From positions 149,963-213,962 of the forward strand of contig DAONDY010000002.1 in NCBI GenBank assembly GCA_035402805.1: a stretch of DNA of 64,000 bases, written 5' to 3'. This document shows positions 43,635-63,854 of this stretch, one piece after another; position 1 is the stretch's first letter; every line of letters starts with the position of its first letter. This DNA is from Candidatus Woesebacteria bacterium. GTDB lineage: Bacteria; Patescibacteriota; Microgenomatia; UBA12405. Position numbers and translations under genes: made by a program. The notes under the pieces are model-generated. The model was not told the origin of the DNA and did no database searches. It saw only the letters and a list, made by a program, of their open reading frames with translations.

Positions 43635-43836
43635 ATTTTTTTATAAAAAAACCTCGCCGAAGTGCGAGGGTAATGTAAAACAAGATAAATTGTTTTGCCT
43701 CGGCGGGATTTATTTTTGTACCTGCTGTCTTCGGTTGATGGGTTTATTGTACTAAGAAATAGTTTAAATGTAAAGAATTAAAAAAAGAAGGTCTGGGGAA
43801 GCAATGGTTTAAATTGTTTCCCGAGACCTCGGATGT
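43635..43836 (-). promoter_or_regulatory. rplJ leader region containing GC hairpin cctcgc-acttcg-gcgagg followed by U-run 9 nt before the start codon (possible L10-responsive attenuator, or terminator of upstream gene)
   Basis: Hairpin at 43651-43670 plus second GC segment gcctcggcggg at ~43697. Interpretation by analogy with rplJ leader autoregulation. Confidence 0.35.
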
Positions 43837-51210: not shown

Positions 51211-51704
51211 AAAACCCCTTTGTTTCGCTTCGCTCAACATCTCCCCTTGATAAAGGGGAGAAACATAATAAGATTAAAATGTGAAATATATTACTGATAT
51301 TAAAGCTAAAACTAATAAATTAAACATAAGATATTTAGAATCTTTAAAAAAGGTGGCAAGGAATAATAGAAGTAAGCCAACTCAAGCAGAATTTATAATG
51401 TGGCAACATTTAAGAAAAAATAAATTTGGTTGTAAATTTACGAGACAAAAACCGATTAATAGATTTGTTTTGGATTTTTATTGTTCTAAATTATTGTTAT
51501 GTATAGAAATAGATGGAGAATCTCATTTAAATAGACAAAATTATGATCTAGAAAGAGATAAATTCTTAGAAAATTGTTTAGGTATTAAAACAATTAGATT
51601 TAGTAATGATGAGGTTTTGAATGATTTTTTGAAAGTAAAAGAAAAACTTCTCCCCTTTATCAAGGGGAGATGTCACAAAATGAAATGAGTGACAGAAGGG
51701 TTTT
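51211..51704 (+). mobile_element. Putative compact mobile element: DUF559 endonuclease ORF bounded by ~55-bp imperfect terminal inverted repeats (left aaaacccctttgtttcgcttcgctcaacatctccccttgataaaggggag; right ctcccctttatcaaggggagatgtcac…gtgacagaagggtttt), each containing palindromic hairpins
   Basis: Reverse-complement comparison of both ends: identical 24-nt inner block, matching aaaaccc/gggtttt tips. Right repeat supplies the last 13 codons of the ORF. Confidence 0.6.
51281..51688 (+). CDS. DUF559 (Vsr/MutH-like restriction endonuclease fold) protein, 135 aa
   Basis: …EFIMWQHLRKNKFGCKFTRQKPINRFVLDFYCSKLLLCIEIDGESH… matches DUF559 core (D…E.DG..H). GTG start. Confidence 0.65.
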   Translation: MKYITDIKAKTNKLNIRYLESLKKVARNNRSKPTQAEFIMWQHLRKNKFGCKFTRQKPINRFVLDFYCSKLLLCIEIDGESHLNRQNYDLERDKFLENCLGIKTIRFSNDEVLNDFLKVKEKLLPFIKGRCHKMK

Positions 51705-51835
51705 AAACACCGCGGAATTGTTGCAAAATTCAATTTTGATACATTTTAGTCTATTGACTCGTACTAGTGGTGGTGGATATGATGATTAACATACACTATA
51801 AATAGTGTTTTATTAATTATAATAAAAATTACAAA

Positions 51836-52336
51836 ATGCTGTGTCCATATTGTGGTTTTGATGAATCAAATGTTTTGGAAAGTCGTGAGGCAGAAGATGG
51901 AAAAGTGACGAGAAGACGAAGGGAATGTTTAAAGTGCAAAAAGAGATTTACAACTTATGAAAGAATCGGGAGCGTGGAGCTAAAAGTTATTAAAAAATCA
52001 GGGAGAGTTGAAGATTATTCTCGAGAAAAATTAGAAAAATGTATAGATAAGGCTTGTTGGAAACTGACGGATGAGGAAAAAAATAAATTAATTGATGAAA
52101 TTGAAATGAAACTTTTAAACTGGCCAAGTGTGGAAATTCCCTCGAAAGAAATTGGAATGATGGTGTTAGAAAAATTAAAAAATATTGATCCTATGGCATA
52201 TATTAGGTTTGCTACTGTTTATTTGGATATAAATGAAATAAATGACTTTAAGGATTTATTAGTTAGTTTTGAAAAATTTCGGCCAAAGGCCGATCAGCCT
52301 ATGGCTGAAATTAGCAGTTTTAAAAATAAAAAATGA
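51836..52336 (+). CDS. nrdR: Transcriptional repressor NrdR (Zn-ribbon + ATP-cone)
   Basis: MLCPYCGFDESNVLESRE…RRRRECLKCKKRFTTYERI signature. Confidence 0.9.
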   Translation: MLCPYCGFDESNVLESREAEDGKVTRRRRECLKCKKRFTTYERIGSVELKVIKKSGRVEDYSREKLEKCIDKACWKLTDEEKNKLIDEIEMKLLNWPSVEIPSKEIGMMVLEKLKNIDPMAYIRFATVYLDINEINDFKDLLVSFEKFRPKADQPMAEISSFKNKK

Positions 52337-54801
52337 CAGATATAAGCAGGCAAAACATAAATGAAAATGAATTATTAGAACCAAGTCTTTCACTTAATGC
52401 TAAATATATTGCCGAAACTAGGTATTCTAGAAAAGATGAAGATGGAAAATCTATAGAAACAGTTAAAGATATTTTTTGGCGTGTAGCAAGTAATGTGGCC
52501 AAAGGAGATGCAGTTTTTGGAGCTAATGAAGAACAGATTGATAGACAGGCCAAGTCTTTTTACCAATTAATGGCAGAACAAAAATTTCTACCAAATACTC
52601 CGTGTTTGGTTAATGCAGGAAAGACCCATCAGCAATTATCGGCTTGTTTTGTACTGCCAATAGATGATTCGATGGAATCAATTTTGGAAACCATGTCAAA
52701 TATGGCTTTGATTCATAAAAGTGGCGGTGGAACTGGTTTTTCATTTTCAAGACTTAGACCAAGCGGGGATTATATTAAAAGTAGCGGTGGAACAACTGTT
52801 GGCCCGGTAAGTTTTATGCAGGCCTACAACGATGTAACGGCTCAAATTAAACAAGGTGGAGTACGACGGGGAGCTAATATGGGAATGTTGTCAATTGATC
52901 ATCCAGATGTACTTCGATTTGCAGTGGCAAAGCTTGATGAATGGAGTTTGACTAACTTTAATATATCGTTGGCAGTGACTAATTCTTTTATGGAAAGAAT
53001 TGAAATCGATAAAAAATTTGCAGATGACGATTCTATTCCTGAAGAAGCGGTTGAAGAAATTAGAATTGCCGAGCAAAACAGAAGTGCCGACGAAAGATTA
53101 AGAGAGGTAGAGGCTGGAATTAAAAAAGTCTATGATTGGGCTAAAGCCACTAAAGAAGGTGAGGGTTATGATCTAATTAACCCAAGGACAGGTCAGTCGA
53201 CAATGAAATTAAATGCTTATAAAGTATTTAATTTGATTACCAGATTAGCTTGGCAATTTGGTGATCCGGGATTGGTTTTTATTGACAGAATGAATGAATC
53301 TAGTTCAAATCCAATACCGAGCGTAGGAAAAATTGAAGCAACTAATCCTTGTGGAGAACAGCCGCTTTTGCCTTACGATGCTTGTAATTTAGGAAGTGTT
53401 AATTTAAGTAAATTTGTCGAAGGATCGGACATAAATTGGAATGGATTGAAGGAAACAATTAAAATAGGGGTTCACTTTTTGGATAATGTGGTAGAAATTA
53501 ATGATTTTCCGGTTCAAAAAATTAAAGAAATGGTAAATAGCACTCGAAGAATTGGAGTGGGAGTGATGGGTTTTGCTGATGCTCTTTTTAAATTGGGAAT
53601 TAAATATGATTCAGAAGAAGGAATTGCTTGGGCTGAGAAAATAATGAAATTTGTAACCGAATCAGCTAAAGAGGCAACCCAAGAATTAGGAGTAACCCGA
53701 GGAGCTTTCCCATTATGGGAAAAGAGTGTTTATTTCAACACTGGTTATAGACCAAGGAATATGGCTTTAACTACCATTGCTCCAACTGGAACCATCAGCA
53801 TGTTGGCTGATACTAGTTCAGGAATCGAGCCAGTGTTTTCTTTGGGTTATCAAAAAAATACGGTTGAAGGTAAAACATTGTATATAGTCAGTCCAATTTT
53901 GGTTGAAGAGCTTAAAAAGAGAAATATTTACAGTGAAGAATTAATTGAAAAGATTGTTAAAAATGGGGGAATTTTGAAAGGAATAGAGGAAATACCAGAA
54001 GACTTAAAATCATTATTTATCACCGCTTTGGAAATTGATCCGGAATGGCATATTAGGGTTCAAGCAGCTTTCCAAAAATATACCGACAATGCGGTGTCTA
54101 AAACAATTAATTTACCAGAAGAAGCCACAGTTGATGATGTACGAAAAGCTTATTTAAAATCTTATTCATTAGGAACAAAAGGAATTACTATTTACAGGAG
54201 CGGTTCAAGATCTTTTGAGCCAATGCAAAAAGTTAAAGCTAAAGAAGGAAAAGTTGAAGAAAAAATAATTAATGTTCAACCCAAGAAAAAAGCCACTCCA
54301 ATAATGGCCAGAGGGGTTAGATTAAAGAAAAAATGTGATTTGGGAAGTGTTTATACTTCTATTTTTTATGAAGCCGGTGATGGTCCAGTGGAAGTCTTTG
54401 TTAATTTAGGTAAAAGTGGTGGTTTTATGTCAGGAGCGGCTGAAGCGACCGGTAGACTAGCCTCTTTAGCCTTAAAATATGGGGCTAGTTTAGATGAAAT
54501 TGCAGATGAAATGGTGGGAATAGCCTGCGGCCAAAAAGTGGGTTTAGGATCGGGGACAGTTCTAAGTATGTTTGACGCAGTTGGTAAATCACTTTTAGAA
54601 GTATCAAGAGGTGAACAATTAGATATTTTTGCTTGCGAAAAAGGTTCTATTGATACGAAAGCAATTGAAAGTATTAGAGTCAAACAAGCCGATTTGGAAA
54701 GCAAGGCTATTTCTTGTCCAGATTGCGGTAGTCCTTTAAGAGCTGAAGAAGGATGTTTTAAATGTACTAATGAATTTTGTGGTTATAGTAAATGTTCATA
54801 A
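52333..54801 (+). CDS. nrdJ: Class II (adenosylcobalamin-dependent) ribonucleotide reductase, monomeric NrdJ type with C-terminal Cys-rich tail
   Basis: RNR barrel motifs (NPCGEQPL, catalytic Cys/Asn/Glu context), B12-type length and C-terminal CPDCG…CFKC. Confidence 0.85.
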   Translation: MTDISRQNINENELLEPSLSLNAKYIAETRYSRKDEDGKSIETVKDIFWRVASNVAKGDAVFGANEEQIDRQAKSFYQLMAEQKFLPNTPCLVNAGKTHQQLSACFVLPIDDSMESILETMSNMALIHKSGGGTGFSFSRLRPSGDYIKSSGGTTVGPVSFMQAYNDVTAQIKQGGVRRGANMGMLSIDHPDVLRFAVAKLDEWSLTNFNISLAVTNSFMERIEIDKKFADDDSIPEEAVEEIRIAEQNRSADERLREVEAGIKKVYDWAKATKEGEGYDLINPRTGQSTMKLNAYKVFNLITRLAWQFGDPGLVFIDRMNESSSNPIPSVGKIEATNPCGEQPLLPYDACNLGSVNLSKFVEGSDINWNGLKETIKIGVHFLDNVVEINDFPVQKIKEMVNSTRRIGVGVMGFADALFKLGIKYDSEEGIAWAEKIMKFVTESAKEATQELGVTRGAFPLWEKSVYFNTGYRPRNMALTTIAPTGTISMLADTSSGIEPVFSLGYQKNTVEGKTLYIVSPILVEELKKRNIYSEELIEKIVKNGGILKGIEEIPEDLKSLFITALEIDPEWHIRVQAAFQKYTDNAVSKTINLPEEATVDDVRKAYLKSYSLGTKGITIYRSGSRSFEPMQKVKAKEGKVEEKIINVQPKKKATPIMARGVRLKKKCDLGSVYTSIFYEAGDGPVEVFVNLGKSGGFMSGAAEATGRLASLALKYGASLDEIADEMVGIACGQKVGLGSGTVLSMFDAVGKSLLEVSRGEQLDIFACEKGSIDTKAIESIRVKQADLESKAISCPDCGSPLRAEEGCFKCTNEFCGYSKCS

Positions 54802-54807
54802 ATAAAT

Positions 54808-55305
54808 ATGAGTGAAGAAAGTGACAGAGGAAGAACACAAGGAGAATGTCTTCTTGATGTTAGTAAAAATTCGCCTTTTGTTGAGGCAGTTGGTTCGATT
54901 GATAGATTTCAAGCCAGTCTAGGATTAGCTAAGGTAAAAATGACAAACACTGACGAAAAAAAGAGATTTTCTCAAATGGAGAAAGATTTATATGAAATTA
55001 TGGGTAGTCTATACATGGGTCAAAGTTGGGCTAATGGGGATAAAAAAATAGAGCAAATAGACAAAGAGATTGAATCGACAAAAAAAAGGATTAGTAACCT
55101 TGAGGGATTTTTGATTCCAGGCGAAAATGAAATTGAAGCTAGAATAAATTTATGTAGAACGGATTGCCGAGAAGCAGAAAGACGATTAGTTAGTTTAAAA
55201 ATTGATAGGGAAGAAAAAGAAAACCTGAAATTTGATCTAAATGTACTTAAATATTTTAACCGATTATCATCCTTATTAAATTTAATGTGGAGGTCGAAAT
55301 TTTAG
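54808..55305 (+). CDS. PduO-type ATP:cob(I)alamin adenosyltransferase
   Basis: DRGRTQGECLLDVSKNSPFVEAVGSIDRFQASLGLAKV and FLIPGENEIEARINLCRTDCREAERRLV match PduO-type ATR motifs. Context next to B12-dependent RNR. Confidence 0.7.
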   Translation: MSEESDRGRTQGECLLDVSKNSPFVEAVGSIDRFQASLGLAKVKMTNTDEKKRFSQMEKDLYEIMGSLYMGQSWANGDKKIEQIDKEIESTKKRISNLEGFLIPGENEIEARINLCRTDCREAERRLVSLKIDREEKENLKFDLNVLKYFNRLSSLLNLMWRSKF

Positions 55306-55401
55306 TGATAGAATAGATTTATCAAGAGGGAATCAGGTTAAAATCCTGAGCTGTGCCGCAACCGTATAGCCGGATAACTAAAACTTTCGAGCAAGAGTAA
55401 T

Positions 55402-56247
55402 ATGAATAATTTAGAAAATAAAAAGTTTTACGACATAAATAAAAATGATTTAAGTGAAGTGGCGGGGGCTTTTTTAGAAGAGGGAACAAGTGATGATTTA
55501 AGAAAAAGAATAAATATTTCTGATCTTTATCCAGAAAGTAAAATTGAAAAGGATAATTGGGAATATAACGAACACTCTGAAGAAGAAAGAGAGGCGACAA
55601 TTAATATTTTTGAACTAGGGAAAAAGGGTTATAATTTGGTTATTTGGATAAGTCCTGATGATGGGGGAAAAGTTTATAAAGAGGGAAGATTGAATATGGA
55701 ATTTCCTATTTTTGGGGAAAGAGAATGGGCAATTTATGGAAGACATATGCCATTACTTTGTGATGAAAAGGAGTCTTTTGAATTGGCAAAAAGATTATTA
55801 GACAACAATGGTTTTTCACTTAGAGAAATTAACTGCAAAGAAGATGTTAGAACTCAACCAATAGCTTTTAAAATAGAGGAAGTTGATGATTGGATAAAAA
55901 AATGCAGGGAATTAATGCCGGAGTTTTCAGAAATTTGGGATTTTGTTGAACAGGGGAAAGATGTAGAAAATAAAATAAAAATGGAAAAAGATGTGAGAAT
56001 GGCAATGAAAATGGCAGAAGGTGATAACTATTTATTTGAAAGTATTATGGCTAGAATGGGAAATGAAATTAATGCTGAGGGTGGCCATGGTAGTTCTTGG
56101 GGTGGAGTAGATAGTGATAGGGGTATGATTATTTCGGTTAATTCTAGTGGAGAAATCTCTTATCAAATGGGAAGCACAGAAGGATTAACTTTTTGTAAAA
56201 AATGTGGTTGCTGGTATTCTGGTGACAAATGTCCATTGTGTGGTTGA
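55402..56247 (+). CDS. Hypothetical 281-aa protein ending in a CxxC…CxxC zinc ribbon, embedded in the dNTP-synthesis gene block
   Basis: ORF track. C-terminal CKKCGCWYSGDKCPLCG. No recognisable enzymatic motif. Confidence 0.45.
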   Translation: MNNLENKKFYDINKNDLSEVAGAFLEEGTSDDLRKRINISDLYPESKIEKDNWEYNEHSEEEREATINIFELGKKGYNLVIWISPDDGGKVYKEGRLNMEFPIFGEREWAIYGRHMPLLCDEKESFELAKRLLDNNGFSLREINCKEDVRTQPIAFKIEEVDDWIKKCRELMPEFSEIWDFVEQGKDVENKIKMEKDVRMAMKMAEGDNYLFESIMARMGNEINAEGGHGSSWGGVDSDRGMIISVNSSGEISYQMGSTEGLTFCKKCGCWYSGDKCPLCG

Positions 56248-56361: not shown

Positions 56362-57093
56362 ATGGCAAAGCAGGAAAAATTAAAAGTTAAATTATTGAGT
56401 TATACGGTAAATCCAGAGCAAAATATTGTGGCGGCTATTAGACAATGTTATGCGGCAATAGGAGCAAAAGAATTAAAAGAAAAAACAAATAAAGAAACGA
56501 GAGAAAGATTAATAAAACAAGTGATAGCATCTGGTCACACATCTACTTTGGAGCATGCCAGTTTTACTTTTGCTGTTGAAGGAATTAGTAGAGTGACGGA
56601 AATTCAATTAATTAGACATAGAATTGGTTGTTCTTATTCGATTCAGTCAGGTAGATATGTTAAAAGAAATGAAGCTTCTTATGTGATTCCACCGGCAATA
56701 TTAAATAGTGATAAGAATGTTTTGAAAAAAGTAAAAAAACATTTTGAAAATGCTCAAAAACTTTACAGTGAATTAATTGATTTAGGAATTAAGGCGGAAG
56801 ATGCTAGATATTGTCAACCGCAGGCATTAAAAACTAAGATGGTGGTGACAATGGATGCCAGAGCTTTACTTCATTTTCTTACTTTAAGATGTTGTCGAAG
56901 AGCTCAATGGGAAATTCAGTTATTGGCTAACGAAATGTTGAAATTGGTAAAGAAAAAGGCACCAATTTTATTTGAAAATACAGGTCCGAGCTGTGTGTCA
57001 CAAGGAATATGTTTTGAAGGAGATATGAGCTGCGGACTTTGGAAAACGATTAAAGGAGCAGAATTAAAAAAGAGGATAAAAGAAAATGAATAA
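56362..57093 (+). CDS. thyX: Flavin-dependent thymidylate synthase ThyX
   Basis: ThyX motif RHRIGCSYSIQSGRY (RHRxxxxxxS). Confidence 0.88.
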   Translation: MAKQEKLKVKLLSYTVNPEQNIVAAIRQCYAAIGAKELKEKTNKETRERLIKQVIASGHTSTLEHASFTFAVEGISRVTEIQLIRHRIGCSYSIQSGRYVKRNEASYVIPPAILNSDKNVLKKVKKHFENAQKLYSELIDLGIKAEDARYCQPQALKTKMVVTMDARALLHFLTLRCCRRAQWEIQLLANEMLKLVKKKAPILFENTGPSCVSQGICFEGDMSCGLWKTIKGAELKKRIKENE

Positions 57094-57787
57094 TAAAGGT
57101 AAATTTATTGTAATTGATGGAATTGATGGAGCTGGAAAAGGAACGCAGACAGAATTGTTAGTTGAAAGACTCAAAAAAGAAAATAGGGAAGTGGTAGTGG
57201 ATGATTATCCCCATTATGAAACTAGCTTTTGGGGAAAACATGTCGGTAGGATGTTAACTGGGGAGTTTGGAGAGCTTTTTAGTATTAATCCATATTTAGC
57301 CGTATTACCTTATATGTTAGACGAGGAAGATGGAAGTCGAAAAATAATTAGGCCGGCTTTAGAAAGTGGAAAAATAGTAATATCAAATCGATATTTTACT
57401 TCTAATGTTCATCAAATTGCTAAAAGGCCGGAGGGTGAAAGAGAAATTTATGCTAATTGGTTGTGGGAGGCTGGATATAACCAAATGGGAATTATAAAAC
57501 CAGATTTAATTATAGTTTTATTAGTGGATCCTTTGATTTGTAAAGAAAATATTTTAAAAAAGGCAGAAAGAAATTATACAAAAGGAAAGGGAATGGACCA
57601 GGCGGAAGAAAATTTTAATCACCAAATGGAATCAGCAAAAGAGTATCAAAAAATGGCAGAAAAAGAGCCAGAAAGATGGGTATTAATAGACTGTTGTAGA
57701 GATGGTAAATTATTATCAAGGGAAGAAATAAATAATATTCTTTTTGAAGAAATTAAAAAAAGGAATTTATTAGGAGAAGATCTTTAA
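57086..57787 (+). CDS. tmk: Thymidylate kinase
   Basis: P-loop FIVIDGIDGAGKGTQ, DRY-like motif. 8-nt overlap with thyX. Confidence 0.85.
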   Translation: MNNKGKFIVIDGIDGAGKGTQTELLVERLKKENREVVVDDYPHYETSFWGKHVGRMLTGEFGELFSINPYLAVLPYMLDEEDGSRKIIRPALESGKIVISNRYFTSNVHQIAKRPEGEREIYANWLWEAGYNQMGIIKPDLIIVLLVDPLICKENILKKAERNYTKGKGMDQAEENFNHQMESAKEYQKMAEKEPERWVLIDCCRDGKLLSREEINNILFEEIKKRNLLGEDL

Positions 57788-61986: not shown

Positions 61987-62856
61987 TTATACTTGAGCTT
62001 GAGCAAAAGTCCCAACAGTAAGACCGTTAGGTTTTTTGATGCCACGAATACGATACCAGATTTCGTTAATAAGATGGTTAGGGATTAAACTAACAACAGT
62101 AATTTGCATTAAATTTAAAGCGATAGCTTTTAAACTTGGTCTAAAACCAAGATTTAATGCAGCAAAACGGCTTTTGATGGTTAATTTAAAAGTAGCTTTG
62201 GGATTTTTATGAGAAAGGCTGCCATTTAAATGACGATAGAAAAGTAAATTGTCTTCAAGGTTGGCAATTTGACCGTGAAGCATAAATCTAAACATTAAAT
62301 TAATTTCTTCAGCCGATGATTGAATTGGTTTGTACCAGATAAAATTTTTAGGTAATTTAGAAAGATTGACCATCATTGATGGTTGTTGCATAGGAATAGC
62401 CCAAAAAATCATATCTTTAAGTTTTTCGGCTTGAGTAGGAAAATTTTTATTACCGATAATATTATTAAATTCATCAATAACAACACATTGACCACCAACA
62501 GCGACAACTTGATAATTTTTCTTTAAAAACTGAATTTGTTTTTCAAGACGATTGGCAAAAGAAATGTCATCAGCATCCATACGGGCTAAAAATTTACCAC
62601 GAGCTTTGGAAATAGCAATATTGGAAGTTAAGCTAACTCCTAAATTAATTTGATTTTTAATAGCAATAATACGAGAATCTTTTTTGGCAAATGATTTGAT
62701 TATTTTCCAAGAATCGTCGGTAGAAGCGTCGTCAACAATGATAAATTCGAAATTAGAAAAAGTCTGATTTAAAATACTTTCAATGGCTTGATCAAGATAA
62801 GGGGAAGCGTTGAAAACAGGCATGTAGATGGTGATAAGTGGTTTAATATTTTTCAT
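61987..62856 (-). CDS. Family 2 glycosyltransferase (soluble, GT-A fold)
   Basis: IYMPVFNASPYLDQAIESILNQT, DDASTDDS and DADD motifs. Confidence 0.8.
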   Translation of the reverse strand: MKNIKPLITIYMPVFNASPYLDQAIESILNQTFSNFEFIIVDDASTDDSWKIIKSFAKKDSRIIAIKNQINLGVSLTSNIAISKARGKFLARMDADDISFANRLEKQIQFLKKNYQVVAVGGQCVVIDEFNNIIGNKNFPTQAEKLKDMIFWAIPMQQPSMMVNLSKLPKNFIWYKPIQSSAEEINLMFRFMLHGQIANLEDNLLFYRHLNGSLSHKNPKATFKLTIKSRFAALNLGFRPSLKAIALNLMQITVVSLIPNHLINEIWYRIRGIKKPNGLTVGTFAQAQV

Positions 62857-63002
62857 TAGTTTTGTTTTTTCCAGTTTCGTCCTTTTGGACTCATCAGTAT
62901 CGACAATATCGATAGACTGGAGTGAGCTGAAAAAATAGAGAAGTAATTTAAAAGCAAAAGTGCTTCAAACTATTCATATTCTTTCAGCTCATCAGCCGTG
63001 AT

Positions 63003-63854
63003 TTATTTGGATTGGGTGGGTGGGGTCAGGGGACCGTAGTCAACTGTGCCATAGGCCCAGTTGTATTGAATTGCTTGACCAAGTCTGAATTCGAACTCGT
63101 TTTGAGCCCATTCGGCTTTTGTTGTTAAGGCAAAGCCATTTTGGATTTGAACAGTATAGATCCCAGGAGCATATGCTCTATAGACACCGCCATTTTTTCC
63201 ATCAACGACTAAGCCGCCAACGATACCAACTTCACCAGTTTTTACTTCAAATGTCCACTTGTATTCGTCATTAGTGCCGGTTTCAGTGTACCAATTTGGG
63301 TGGCCGATTTGTTCTTGCGGAAGATTACCATGCTCGAGAGCAGGATCAACGACAGCAAGAGTTGCGGTGGTTGTGGCTGCGGTGATTGAGACAGTGGTTG
63401 GAGCGGCTTGGGTGGTTTGTGAGGAAAGAGCGATTGTTCCCCAGATGGCAAATGCCAAGACGATAATTCCTAGGCCAGTAAAAAATGTCGCTATTTTAGT
63501 GGGTTTCATCCATGCGTAGTGACCGTTTGTGGCAGCTGCGACAATGAAAAAACCCAGACCAATGATGGCGATGATGGCACCGACCAGGACAACGATTGTC
63601 CAGGCGCCCATGATGAGCGGAAGGACGGTGAGGCTGATGATGCCGACGATGATAGCCAACAGGATTCCGAATGACGGCAACACGAATTTCTTAAACATAA
63701 CGATACCTCCTAGTATCTTTTCTTTTAGATAGATGATTAGATCTCTTAGGTTTTGTCGGTCATATGGTCTCCCACAGTTCCAACAAAACCGGGCCTTTGT
63801 GTTTCTGGTTTCAGAATGACAATAAAGGCATTCTTTAGCTGGTTTCGTAGCCAT
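63003..63854 (-). CDS. Hypothetical membrane protein with N-terminal Zn-ribbon (CxxC…CxxC), 3-4 TM helices and extracytoplasmic C-terminal domain; GC content clearly above window average
   Basis: ORF track. CLYCHSETRNTKARFCWNCG. Hydrophobic segments. Many GC-rich codons. Confidence 0.45.
   Translation of the reverse strand: MATKPAKECLYCHSETRNTKARFCWNCGRPYDRQNLRDLIIYLKEKILGGIVMFKKFVLPSFGILLAIIVGIISLTVLPLIMGAWTIVVLVGAIIAIIGLGFFIVAAATNGHYAWMKPTKIATFFTGLGIIVLAFAIWGTIALSSQTTQAAPTTVSITAATTTATLAVVDPALEHGNLPQEQIGHPNWYTETGTNDEYKWTFEVKTGEVGIVGGLVVDGKNGGVYRAYAPGIYTVQIQNGFALTTKAEWAQNEFEFRLGQAIQYNWAYGTVDYGPLTPPTQSK

Follow-up and report, generated by a model that had tools for sequence, protein, structure and literature searches.

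The 281-residue zinc-ribbon protein described here is encoded in a stretch of 64,000 nucleotides from Candidatus Woesebacteria bacterium (contig DAONDY010000002.1, positions 149,963 to 213,962; this whole stretch is called the window). Its open reading frame (ORF) lies between a PduO-type adenosyltransferase gene and thyX, and it is preceded by a cobalamin riboswitch, sequence of which also stands in front of its homologues in the loci examined. Comparison of related sequences supports well the view that the gene belongs to a corrinoid regulon and is positionally tied to ribonucleotide reductase (RNR) and adenosyltransferase genes in Microgenomates-like bacteria of the candidate phyla radiation (CPR). 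The RNA itself comes from a known class, the Cbl-II-like translational switches; the novelty is a B12-riboswitch homeostasis module around an uncharacterised protein. The explanation that we favour as a whole, a riboswitch-gated protein for the capture or processing of corrinoids, is tentative, with a probability of roughly 0.4.

A cobalamin riboswitch in front of the zinc-ribbon gene

The riboswitch occupies the 96-nt gap (55306-55401) between the adenosyltransferase gene and the ORF. Its elements and the gene that follows it are:

55315-55385, + strand: cobalamin riboswitch aptamer, short and Cbl-II-like, found as a match to RF01689 (AdoCbl-II); it starts 10 nt past the adenosyltransferase stop codon
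55354-55358, + strand: L5 loop (5'-UGCCG-3'), contributed by the aptamer to the kissing loop and assigned by complementarity to L13
55383-55398, + strand: P13 regulatory hairpin, ACUUU-CGAGCA-AGAGU, with the L13 loop at 55388-55393
55402-56247, + strand: ORF of the 281-residue zinc-ribbon protein, with an ATG start

In a 10-kb search, the window aptamer matched RF01689 with 33.3 bits (gathering score 36.5; E = 8.5e-05), while RF01689 elements at the same position in orthologous loci reached 38.6-46.9 bits, above the gathering score. Homologue loci, cited below by their L numbers, were examined in the same way; scans of genomes and of metagenomes yielded 4 loci each. Riboswitch sequence lies directly 5' of the family gene in 19 of 19 distinct loci, at a distance of ~10-40 nt from the start codon in all of them, although an intact, Rfam-scored aptamer is not found in every one. 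Rfam matches were obtained at 16 of the 19 loci, and seven of these 16 reach the gathering score. Besides the window, RF01689 matched L001 (44.5 bits), L003 (32.1), L005 (34.4), L007 (36.1), L009 (46.9), L010 (43.9), L017 (32.8), L018 (27.7), L020 (42.9) and L021 (38.6); RF00174 matched L014 (64.4 bits), L019 (33.5), L022 (35.6), L008 (28.4) and L024 (29.5). The riboswitches of L006, L013 and L016 were recognised mainly by eye: that of L006, without an Rfam match, carries inserted hairpins, both in L4 and 3' of the B12 box; that of L013, also without a match, is a degenerate aptamer that lacks P4 and looks decayed; and that of L016 is cut by the contig end (17.8 bits, E = 0.89). A preliminary description of this DNA had suggested a link with B12 from the neighbouring genes and had missed the riboswitch. 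That link is now strongly supported by a cobalamin riboswitch 5' of the homologue in every locus examined, and it is further backed by the conserved placement of the gene after an adenosyltransferase gene or an RNR operon.

The loci with the riboswitch encode proteins that range from 76% down to ~20% identity to the window protein, and they cover the divergent subfamilies P0154, P0180, P0145, P0061, P0075 and P0072-like. Since the RNA and the gene have stayed together in the subfamilies of ~20% identity and in the different neighbourhood of L022, we regard the pair as a conserved unit. One could argue instead that the association is incidental, the RNA having another target or being a chance or decayed match, and that the ORF encodes an unrelated lineage-specific protein; the window score below the gathering score, the degenerate aptamer of L013 and a 3-nt overlap between P1 and P13 would fit such an argument. 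However, the association holds at 19 of 19 loci, the ~20%-identity subfamilies and the non-syntenic L022 included, P13 incorporates the Shine-Dalgarno-like sequence of the target gene itself, and the genes 3' of the target vary between loci. An incidental association is effectively refuted by these comparative data. As to the overlap itself, at 55380-55387 of the window the Rfam P1 3' strand AAAACU (55380-55385) shares 3 nt with the P13 5' strand ACUUU (55383-55387), reflecting either an imprecise P1 assignment in an AT-rich leader or a partial competition between P1 and P13.

An L5-L13 kissing loop is common to the Cbl-I and Cbl-II riboswitches (PMC7367189), and it is found in all 18 loci analysed for the expression platform. 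At 16 of the 18, L5 (UGCCG) and L13 (CGAGCA) form five pairs with one bulged A; the pairing of L021 is compensatory (GGCCG with CGAGCC), and in L018 the bulged base alone is altered. RNAalifold recovers the L5-L13 pairs unaided. The same program also proposed an extended kissing loop (alignment columns 55-85 and 56-84), which we rejected: it is broken by L007 and L018 when these are read by eye, and it is redundant, the P5 and P13 stems accounting for the same nucleotides.

The P13 hairpin, with its (C)GAGCA loop, precedes the start codon in 18 of 18 loci, and its 3' strand is purine-rich and Shine-Dalgarno-like; in the window this strand (55394-55398) is a purine run that ends 3 nt before the ATG. 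It stands 0-7 nt before the ATG elsewhere too, with two exceptions: in L003 the start codon and P13 overlap, and in L014 P13 lies ~36 nt upstream. The stems differ between loci in a compensatory manner (ACUUU/AGAGU, ACUUU/AAAGU, CUUA/UAAG, CCUU/AAGG, UUCC/GGAA, GCUUCC/GGAGGU and AUUCA/UGAAU). Considered alone, P13 lies between 0 and -1.8 kcal/mol for 15 of the 17 loci (-0.5 kcal/mol in the window), and this marginal stability fits the need of a ligand-dependent clamp. L014 has, in addition, an antiterminator and a terminator, CCUUCC-loop-GGAAGG-U7; the 5' arm of the terminator can pair with the P13 3' strand. It is this repressing design that has been dissected for P. megaterium metE (PMC10653944).

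The window RNA resembles the Cbl-II riboswitches of the env8HyCbl type (AdoCbl-II or 'AdoCbl-variant', RF01689) in its short aptamer without a long P6, in the L5-L13 kissing loop with a bulged L13 nucleotide, in the regulatory hairpin by the start codon and in the predicted repression by corrinoid. It differs from them in several respects: its L5 is UGCCG, whereas the published consensus is UCCCG (PMC10653944); the J1/13 linker is almost absent; the element is intra-operon, 10 nt after the pduO stop codon; and some orthologues (L008, L014, L019 and L024) have a long P6. In env8HyCbl and btuB, the corrinoid stabilises the kissing loop and P13, hides the ribosome-binding site and represses the gene (PMC10653944; PMC5028336). 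Because the platform architecture matches these repressing switches and that of P. megaterium metE, we infer an OFF switch, so that the gene is probably repressed by corrinoid and the protein produced at low corrinoid. Neither a promoter-like nor a terminator-like site was found on the + strand in the interval from pduO to the ORF, a result which suggests that the switch gates the translation of this one gene within the nrd transcript.

The leaders of orthologous genes alternate between the ~70-nt Cbl-II-like aptamer and a form of 155-185 nt with a long P6, scored by RF00174:

L008 5777-5961: long-P6 leader, RF00174
L024 3616-3791: long-P6 leader, RF00174
L019 667-821: long-P6 leader, RF00174
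L014 2611-2778: long-P6 leader, RF00174

This alternation may reflect shifts of effector selectivity within one gene family, and the short and long-P6 orthologues provide material for the study of how effector selectivity evolves.

The protein family and its conserved residues

As the preliminary description had it, the 281-residue ORF is present between the adenosyltransferase gene and thyX. The parts of the protein used below are:

55645-55656, + strand: 'WISP' motif, W82-I83-S84-P85, from column statistics
56077-56100, + strand: Gly-rich loop EGGHGSSW, residues 226-233, with the codon of residue 229 at 56086-56088
56194-56241, + strand: C-terminal Cys4 ribbon CKKCG-x6-K-CPLC, with C265, C268, C277 and C280

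The ORF is no chance reading frame, since its protein belongs to a family with conserved motifs. A word-indexed search returned 48 homologues, of which 46 fall within 42-100% identity, and an exhaustive profile search that covered 1.84 billion cluster representatives (clusters at 50% identity) returned 154 clusters at E <= 1e-3, with 72 at <= 1e-10. Nearly all full-length members have 280-360 residues. The organism names among the 48 homologues are Woesebacteria and Shapirobacteria only, and none of the 48 carries a precomputed Pfam domain; an identical protein, annotated as hypothetical, is listed in the database from a metagenome-assembled genome of Candidatus Woesebacteria. Among the distant members, whose cluster names are almost void of taxonomy, one cluster is labelled Nevskiaceae, and we suspect a binning error there.

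In an AlphaFold2 (AF2) model and the family alignments, the 281 residues begin with an alpha/beta domain at the N terminus, followed by a segment of four helices, a loop with the motif G-x-[H/C]-G, beta hairpins and the C-terminal Cys4 ribbon. The model has a predicted local distance difference test score (pLDDT) of 89.1 and a predicted template modelling score (pTM) of 0.82, and a second, independent AF2 model agrees with it, so the prediction is both confident and reproducible. The Gly/Ser-rich segment reported earlier, EGGHGSSWGGVDSDRG, begins at residue 226. Two details of the earlier account needed correction. The two CxxC knuckles of the ribbon are there, but their spacing is C265-x2-C268-x8-C277-x2-C280 and not the x11 given before; and the acidity ascribed to the N-terminal half extends throughout the protein, with isoelectric points of 4.70 for residues 1-140 and 4.75 for residues 141-281.

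Searches for known relatives agree with the earlier remark that no catalytic motif can be recognised. The window protein has no match in Pfam, NCBIfam, PHROGs or PADLOC, and diverse members of the family match zinc-ribbon models only: Pfam Zn_Ribbon_1 (PF13240) and Zn_ribbon_3 (PF13248) match 13-20 of 51 members. With two CxxC knuckles and a profile match in the family, the C terminus has the features of a Cys4 zinc ribbon; for the ribbon of the window protein itself, the best Pfam match was only RecR_ZnF (E = 0.28). When PDB sequences were searched with two family profiles, ribbons (L32, Nop10 and L40e) and one spurious stretch of cathepsin B were retrieved. Like these generic ribbons (PF13240, PF13248, L32 and Nop10), that of the family has two CxxC knuckles, spaced by 8-12 residues, right at the C terminus; unlike in a plain ribbon protein, it makes up ~20 of the 281 residues, and the other ~260 are without relatives of known function. 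Structure prediction followed by Foldseek, the check proposed at the outset, gave confident models and no fold relative in PDB or BFVD: two AF2 models compared with PDB, and one with BFVD, returned nothing at E <0.02, and the N-terminal domain showed a weak PAS/Cache-like resemblance at a probability of <=0.35. No match to a known, unrelated family was found. The family appears to be undescribed, relatives of established function were not detected by these searches, and the fold is possibly new.

Several assignments were considered and dropped. A papain-like cysteine protease was suggested by a short stretch, GSCGSSW, at E = 0.25-10, the best match being the procathepsin B chain 1mir_A; the family has Ser, not Cys, before W/N, its His/Cys-variable position differs from the nucleophile position of Q..GSCGSCW, and neither a profile nor a fold match accompanies the stretch. 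Kinship with the HypA metallochaperone was suggested by matches in 10 of 51 members (best E = 0.01), all within the ribbon region only. A transmembrane or secreted protein was rejected in view of the maximum 19-residue hydropathy of <=1.28: none of the 51 members has a transmembrane-length hydrophobic stretch or a signal-like region, and we take the family protein to be soluble and presumably cytosolic because of the lack of such a stretch.

Residue conservation was computed over the 51 diverse members. Ser84 of the 'WISP' motif is invariant (51 of 51), and E26, R36, E62, W82, P85, Y92, R96, R150, W179, E213, G227 and G230 are kept in at least 44 of the 51. The conserved E26, R36, E62, S84, Y92, R96, R150 and E213 would be compatible with a ligand-binding or active site. 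Each of the four ribbon cysteines is kept in 49-51 members. Position 229 (GGHGSSW) is occupied by His in 36 members and by Cys in 14, so that one or the other stands there in 50 of 51. It sits in a G-x-[H/C]-G-x-S-[NW] loop that follows the helical segment, outside any DxHxxG context. Because an alternation of His and Cys is typical of metal or cofactor ligands, it suggests that H229 is a ligand of a metal or of cobalt. Another Cys, in 'ECRGIP' (reference position 113), occurs in 26 of the 51 members.

Some homologues (P0025, P0028, P0029, P0033, P0035 and P0075; also P0046, P0050, P0055, P0087 and P0093) carry optional N-terminal extensions of 25-60 residues with the motifs 'GNNALxL' or 'FLVxxGLVG...KLLPAP', which may serve as docking peptides; no such extension is present in the window protein. 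In L006 (6001-6880), the homologue P0040 has 239 residues and is followed by an overlapping 65-residue ORF, probably the result of a frameshift or an assembly error that detached the ribbon.

Gene neighbourhood and candidate roles

The ORF is part of a co-directional cluster with the following neighbours:

51836-52336, + strand: nrdR, a zinc-ribbon and ATP-cone repressor (PF22811, PF03477), first gene of the cluster
52333-54801, + strand: nrdJ, adenosylcobalamin-dependent class II RNR of 822 residues (TIGR02504, NrdJ_Z)
54808-55305, + strand: PduO-type ATP:cob(I)alamin adenosyltransferase of 165 residues (PF01923)
56362-57093, + strand: thyX (PF02511, E = 7e-68)
57086-57787, co-directional: 233-residue ORF, positional counterpart of the Tmk gene in L001
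57825-58982, co-directional: 385-residue ORF, positional counterpart of the serine hydroxymethyltransferase (SHMT) gene in L001

The best promoter-like site of the region (51754-51783, score 10/12) lies 5' of nrdR. NrdJ scored 670.8 bits with TIGR02504 (cut-off 399.95). The adenosyltransferase scored 106.4 bits with PF01923 (cut-off 24; E = 2.2e-30) and 95 bits with TIGR00636, and since the latter is below its cut-off of 108.45, the PduO assignment holds at the level of the family and not as a certified equivalog.

The order NrdR-NrdJ-PduO-riboswitch-target is shared by nine distinct loci (the window, L001, L003, L005, L006, L007, L008, L010 and L024). L021 has the order NrdR-NrdD-NrdG-riboswitch-target-PyrF...Dcd-ThyX, and L014 the order riboswitch-target-NrdR-NrdD-NrdG-Maf-CobA-type adenosyltransferase. 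An RNR operon, either NrdJ+PduO or NrdD+NrdG, adjoins the target in 11 of the 13 loci with readable flanks, so that the homologues lie mostly within RNR or nucleotide neighbourhoods. RNR genes were not found near the target in L022 and L016; the neighbours in L022 are TIM, PGK, GAPDH and glutaredoxin, a glycolysis context. The RNR slot is filled by NrdJ+PduO (51836-55305 in the window) or by NrdD+NrdG (L021 1371-4909; L014 4081-8511, with the CobA-type enzyme), and this looks like a swap of RNR-class cassettes with the riboswitch and the target gene staying put.

Two of the roles first envisaged for the protein fare poorly in this comparison. A partnership with ThyX is not supported, given the broken adjacency in L001, L003, L005 and L007, where SIMPL or Band_7 genes separate the target from ThyX, the replacement of ThyX with ThyA+DHFR in L008, and the case of L006, where no ThyX gene was called within the 12.7-kb locus. 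Nucleotide salvage gained no specific support, and it is weakened because the gene also stands beside the operons of the B12-independent NrdD/NrdG (L014 and L021) and beside glycolysis genes (L022).

CPR bacteria are not known to make B12; its biosynthesis is implausible for their small genomes, judging from general CPR biology, and many of them depend on a B12-dependent RNR for all their DNA precursors. We propose that, as in the established riboswitch mechanism, bound corrinoid would let the kissing loop lock P13 and thereby hide the ribosome-binding site, and that the protein would be made only while the nrdR-nrdJ-pduO message is transcribed and intracellular corrinoid is low. The protein itself is a candidate factor for corrinoid capture or processing, and this is the least certain step of the proposal. 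The His/Cys in the G-x-[H/C]-G loop, which adjoins the Cys4 ribbon, would bind incoming cobalamin or a metal for its processing; the PduO or CobA adenosyltransferase, and through it NrdJ, would then be supplied with the cobalamin. The whole would amount to the scavenging of B12 at low supply under classic negative feedback.

The genes that B12 riboswitches repress are classically those for biosynthesis, for uptake or salvage, or for B12-independent substitutes (PMC10653944). We favour a cytosolic role in corrinoid capture or processing, feeding the adenosyltransferase and NrdJ, because of the tight placement of the gene after PduO or with CobA, because the gene persists whether the neighbouring RNR is of class II or class III, and because the universal His/Cys could ligate cobalt or a catalytic metal; read from sequence, this role has in our estimate somewhat less than an even chance. 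A more specific form of it, in which the family would be a CPR-specific corrinoid chaperone or processing enzyme with a new fold, would ligate cobalt by the loop His/Cys, and would serve the adenosyltransferase and the class II RNR as a counterpart of the CblC/CblD step, we consider rather doubtful.

Likeness to the eukaryotic B12 chaperones CblC (MMACHC) and CblD (MMADHC) lies in the proposed role only, that of a soluble receiver of cobalamin which prepares it for the adenosyltransferase, and is a hypothetical functional analogy. CblC and CblD have ~280 residues with an alpha/beta domain and a helical segment, a layout similar to that of the family protein, and they set a precedent for thiolate-cobalt chemistry. 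However, the 25 most frequent Pfam families matched by the 51 members and the best 50 Foldseek matches in PDB showed no similarity of sequence or fold to CblC, and nothing there corresponds to the Cys4 ribbon or the G-x-[H/C]-G loop. BtuM, a small integral membrane protein that transports and decyanates B12, uses a cysteine as cobalt ligand and works outside the canonical BtuCDF and ECF systems. What it has in common with our proposal is the notion of cobalt ligation by a Cys or His of the protein and of B12 acquisition outside BtuCDF and ECF; it differs in that the family lacks a transmembrane-length segment, and homology was not detected.

Several observations weigh against corrinoid capture or processing. 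On the RNA side, the window aptamer is below the Rfam gathering score and has weak P1 and P3 pairing, and the OFF direction is inferred from architecture. On the protein side, neither the DxHxxG motif nor the canonical B12-binding domain (PF02310) was found, there being no consistent Pfam match; even among the 25 most frequent of 93 Pfam families matched by the 51 members at E up to 10, no consistent non-ribbon match emerged; and the best 50 Foldseek matches in PDB for the two models include neither MMACHC nor any other B12-binding structure. A soluble protein with no export signal would be unusual for an uptake or acquisition gene, and the swap of His and Cys is just as typical of an ordinary structural zinc site. 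In the neighbourhood, L021, with its B12-independent NrdD, has no adenosyltransferase within 5 kb, and L022 has neither an RNR nor an adenosyltransferase nearby. Finally, the synteny comes largely from one lineage of Microgenomates-like CPR bacteria, and shared ancestry could account for part of it.

The third classical group, that of B12-independent substitutes, supplies the main alternative in which the gene would encode a back-up enzyme that replaces or bypasses a B12-dependent step, for instance in deoxynucleotide salvage or interconversion. Repressing logic suits B12-independent isozymes equally well and is established for metE and nrdAB/nrdDG (PMC10653944). The neighbourhood is rich in genes for deoxynucleoside triphosphate (dNTP) metabolism (NrdJ or NrdD, ThyX, Tmk, TK, Dcd, PyrF and GlyA), and the conserved polar residues (E, R, S, Y and H/C) might make up an active site. 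In L014, the target heads a riboswitch-controlled cluster, the riboswitch and terminator preceding target-nrdR-nrdD-nrdG, and co-repression with the B12-independent RNR is possible there. The likeness to MetE and NrdAB/NrdDG ends with this regulatory logic: the target protein is not homologous to them or to other known nucleotide enzymes, no nucleotide-binding motif was seen in it, and its gene occurs beside both B12-dependent and B12-independent RNRs, hence it is no simple substitute for NrdJ. The copy among the glycolysis genes of L022 also speaks against such an enzyme, which we regard as unlikely.

The zinc ribbon raises the question of a regulator or checkpoint of B12 starvation, which would bind nucleic acid or a partner protein and in this way pass the signal of low corrinoid on to the nrd operon, replication or translation. 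The ribbon resembles those of L32, Nop10, L40e and RNA polymerase (RNAP) subunit E'' (E = 0.003-0.15), NrdR of the same operon is a zinc-ribbon regulator too, and the optional N-terminal motifs (GNNALxL; FLVxxGLVG..KLLPAP) resemble docking tails. B12 riboswitches that control regulators exist, as in the pocR and eut systems of Listeria and Enterococcus. Yet the ribbon matches are generic, neither a helix-turn-helix nor another DNA-binding domain was found by Pfam in the 51 members, and the body of ~230 residues, with its invariant polar residues and weak PAS/Cache-like resemblance, is more like a ligand-binding or catalytic module. A regulatory role seems to us distinctly unlikely.

A variant within the idea of B12 handling would make the Cys4 site a rubredoxin-like Fe(Cys)4 centre, and the protein would act as an electron donor, reducing cob(III)alamin or cob(II)alamin on behalf of the adenosyltransferase. 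Its knuckles, CKKCG and CPLCG, resemble those of rubredoxin and rubrerythrin, 7 of the 51 members have weak matches to Pfam RUBY_RBDX, and rubrerythrin chains turn up at E = 0.31; moreover, the gene adjoins PduO or CobA adenosyltransferases, enzymes that need a reductant. On the other hand, a Cys4 sequence cannot tell Zn from Fe, no motif for the binding of flavin or NAD(P)H was seen, and repression of a reductase by B12 is not obviously needed. We give this variant a slim chance.

If we return to corrinoid capture or processing, the missing step of B12 handling in CPR bacteria has in this family a concrete candidate that can be cloned. The riboswitch link adds a new member to the B12 regulon and makes the question of its role directly testable. 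A full-text search of the literature on B12 riboswitches or B12 use in CPR, Microgenomates or Patescibacteria returned nothing relevant.

Other features of the window and the related loci

A SIMPL/DUF541 gene, often accompanied by a Band_7/SPFH gene, recurs just 3' of the target in related loci and is not at that position in the window:

L001 6960-7670: SIMPL/DUF541 gene downstream of the target
L008 6981-7718: SIMPL/DUF541 gene downstream of the target
L010 6471-7199: SIMPL/DUF541 gene downstream of the target
L003 8038-8739: SIMPL/DUF541 gene downstream of the target
L005 7803-8507: SIMPL/DUF541 gene downstream of the target
L007 3952-4671: SIMPL/DUF541 gene downstream of the target

The ThyX (Thy1) proteins of L005 (8799-10262, - strand), L024 (4921-6357, - strand) and L007 (6517-7967, + strand) have 478-549 residues, about twice the normal length; the gene in L007 runs in the same direction as the target, those in L005 and L024 in the opposite direction. 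L006 has an extra 137-residue ORF, without a Pfam match, between the adenosyltransferase gene and the riboswitch. Upstream of the cluster, a DUF559 (endonuclease-like) ORF lies between secE and nrdR in the window (51281-51688, + strand), and unrelated small ORFs take this place in other loci.

Two further RNA elements were matched elsewhere in the window. A type III hammerhead ribozyme (RF00008; 49.2 bits, gathering score 48.5, E = 8e-08) was matched at 62869-62922 on the - strand, where it lies between two ORFs of that strand, 61987-62856 and 63003-63854. The other element, at 43637-43752 and likewise on the - strand, is a ribosomal protein L10 leader (RF00557; 52.2 bits, gathering score 44).

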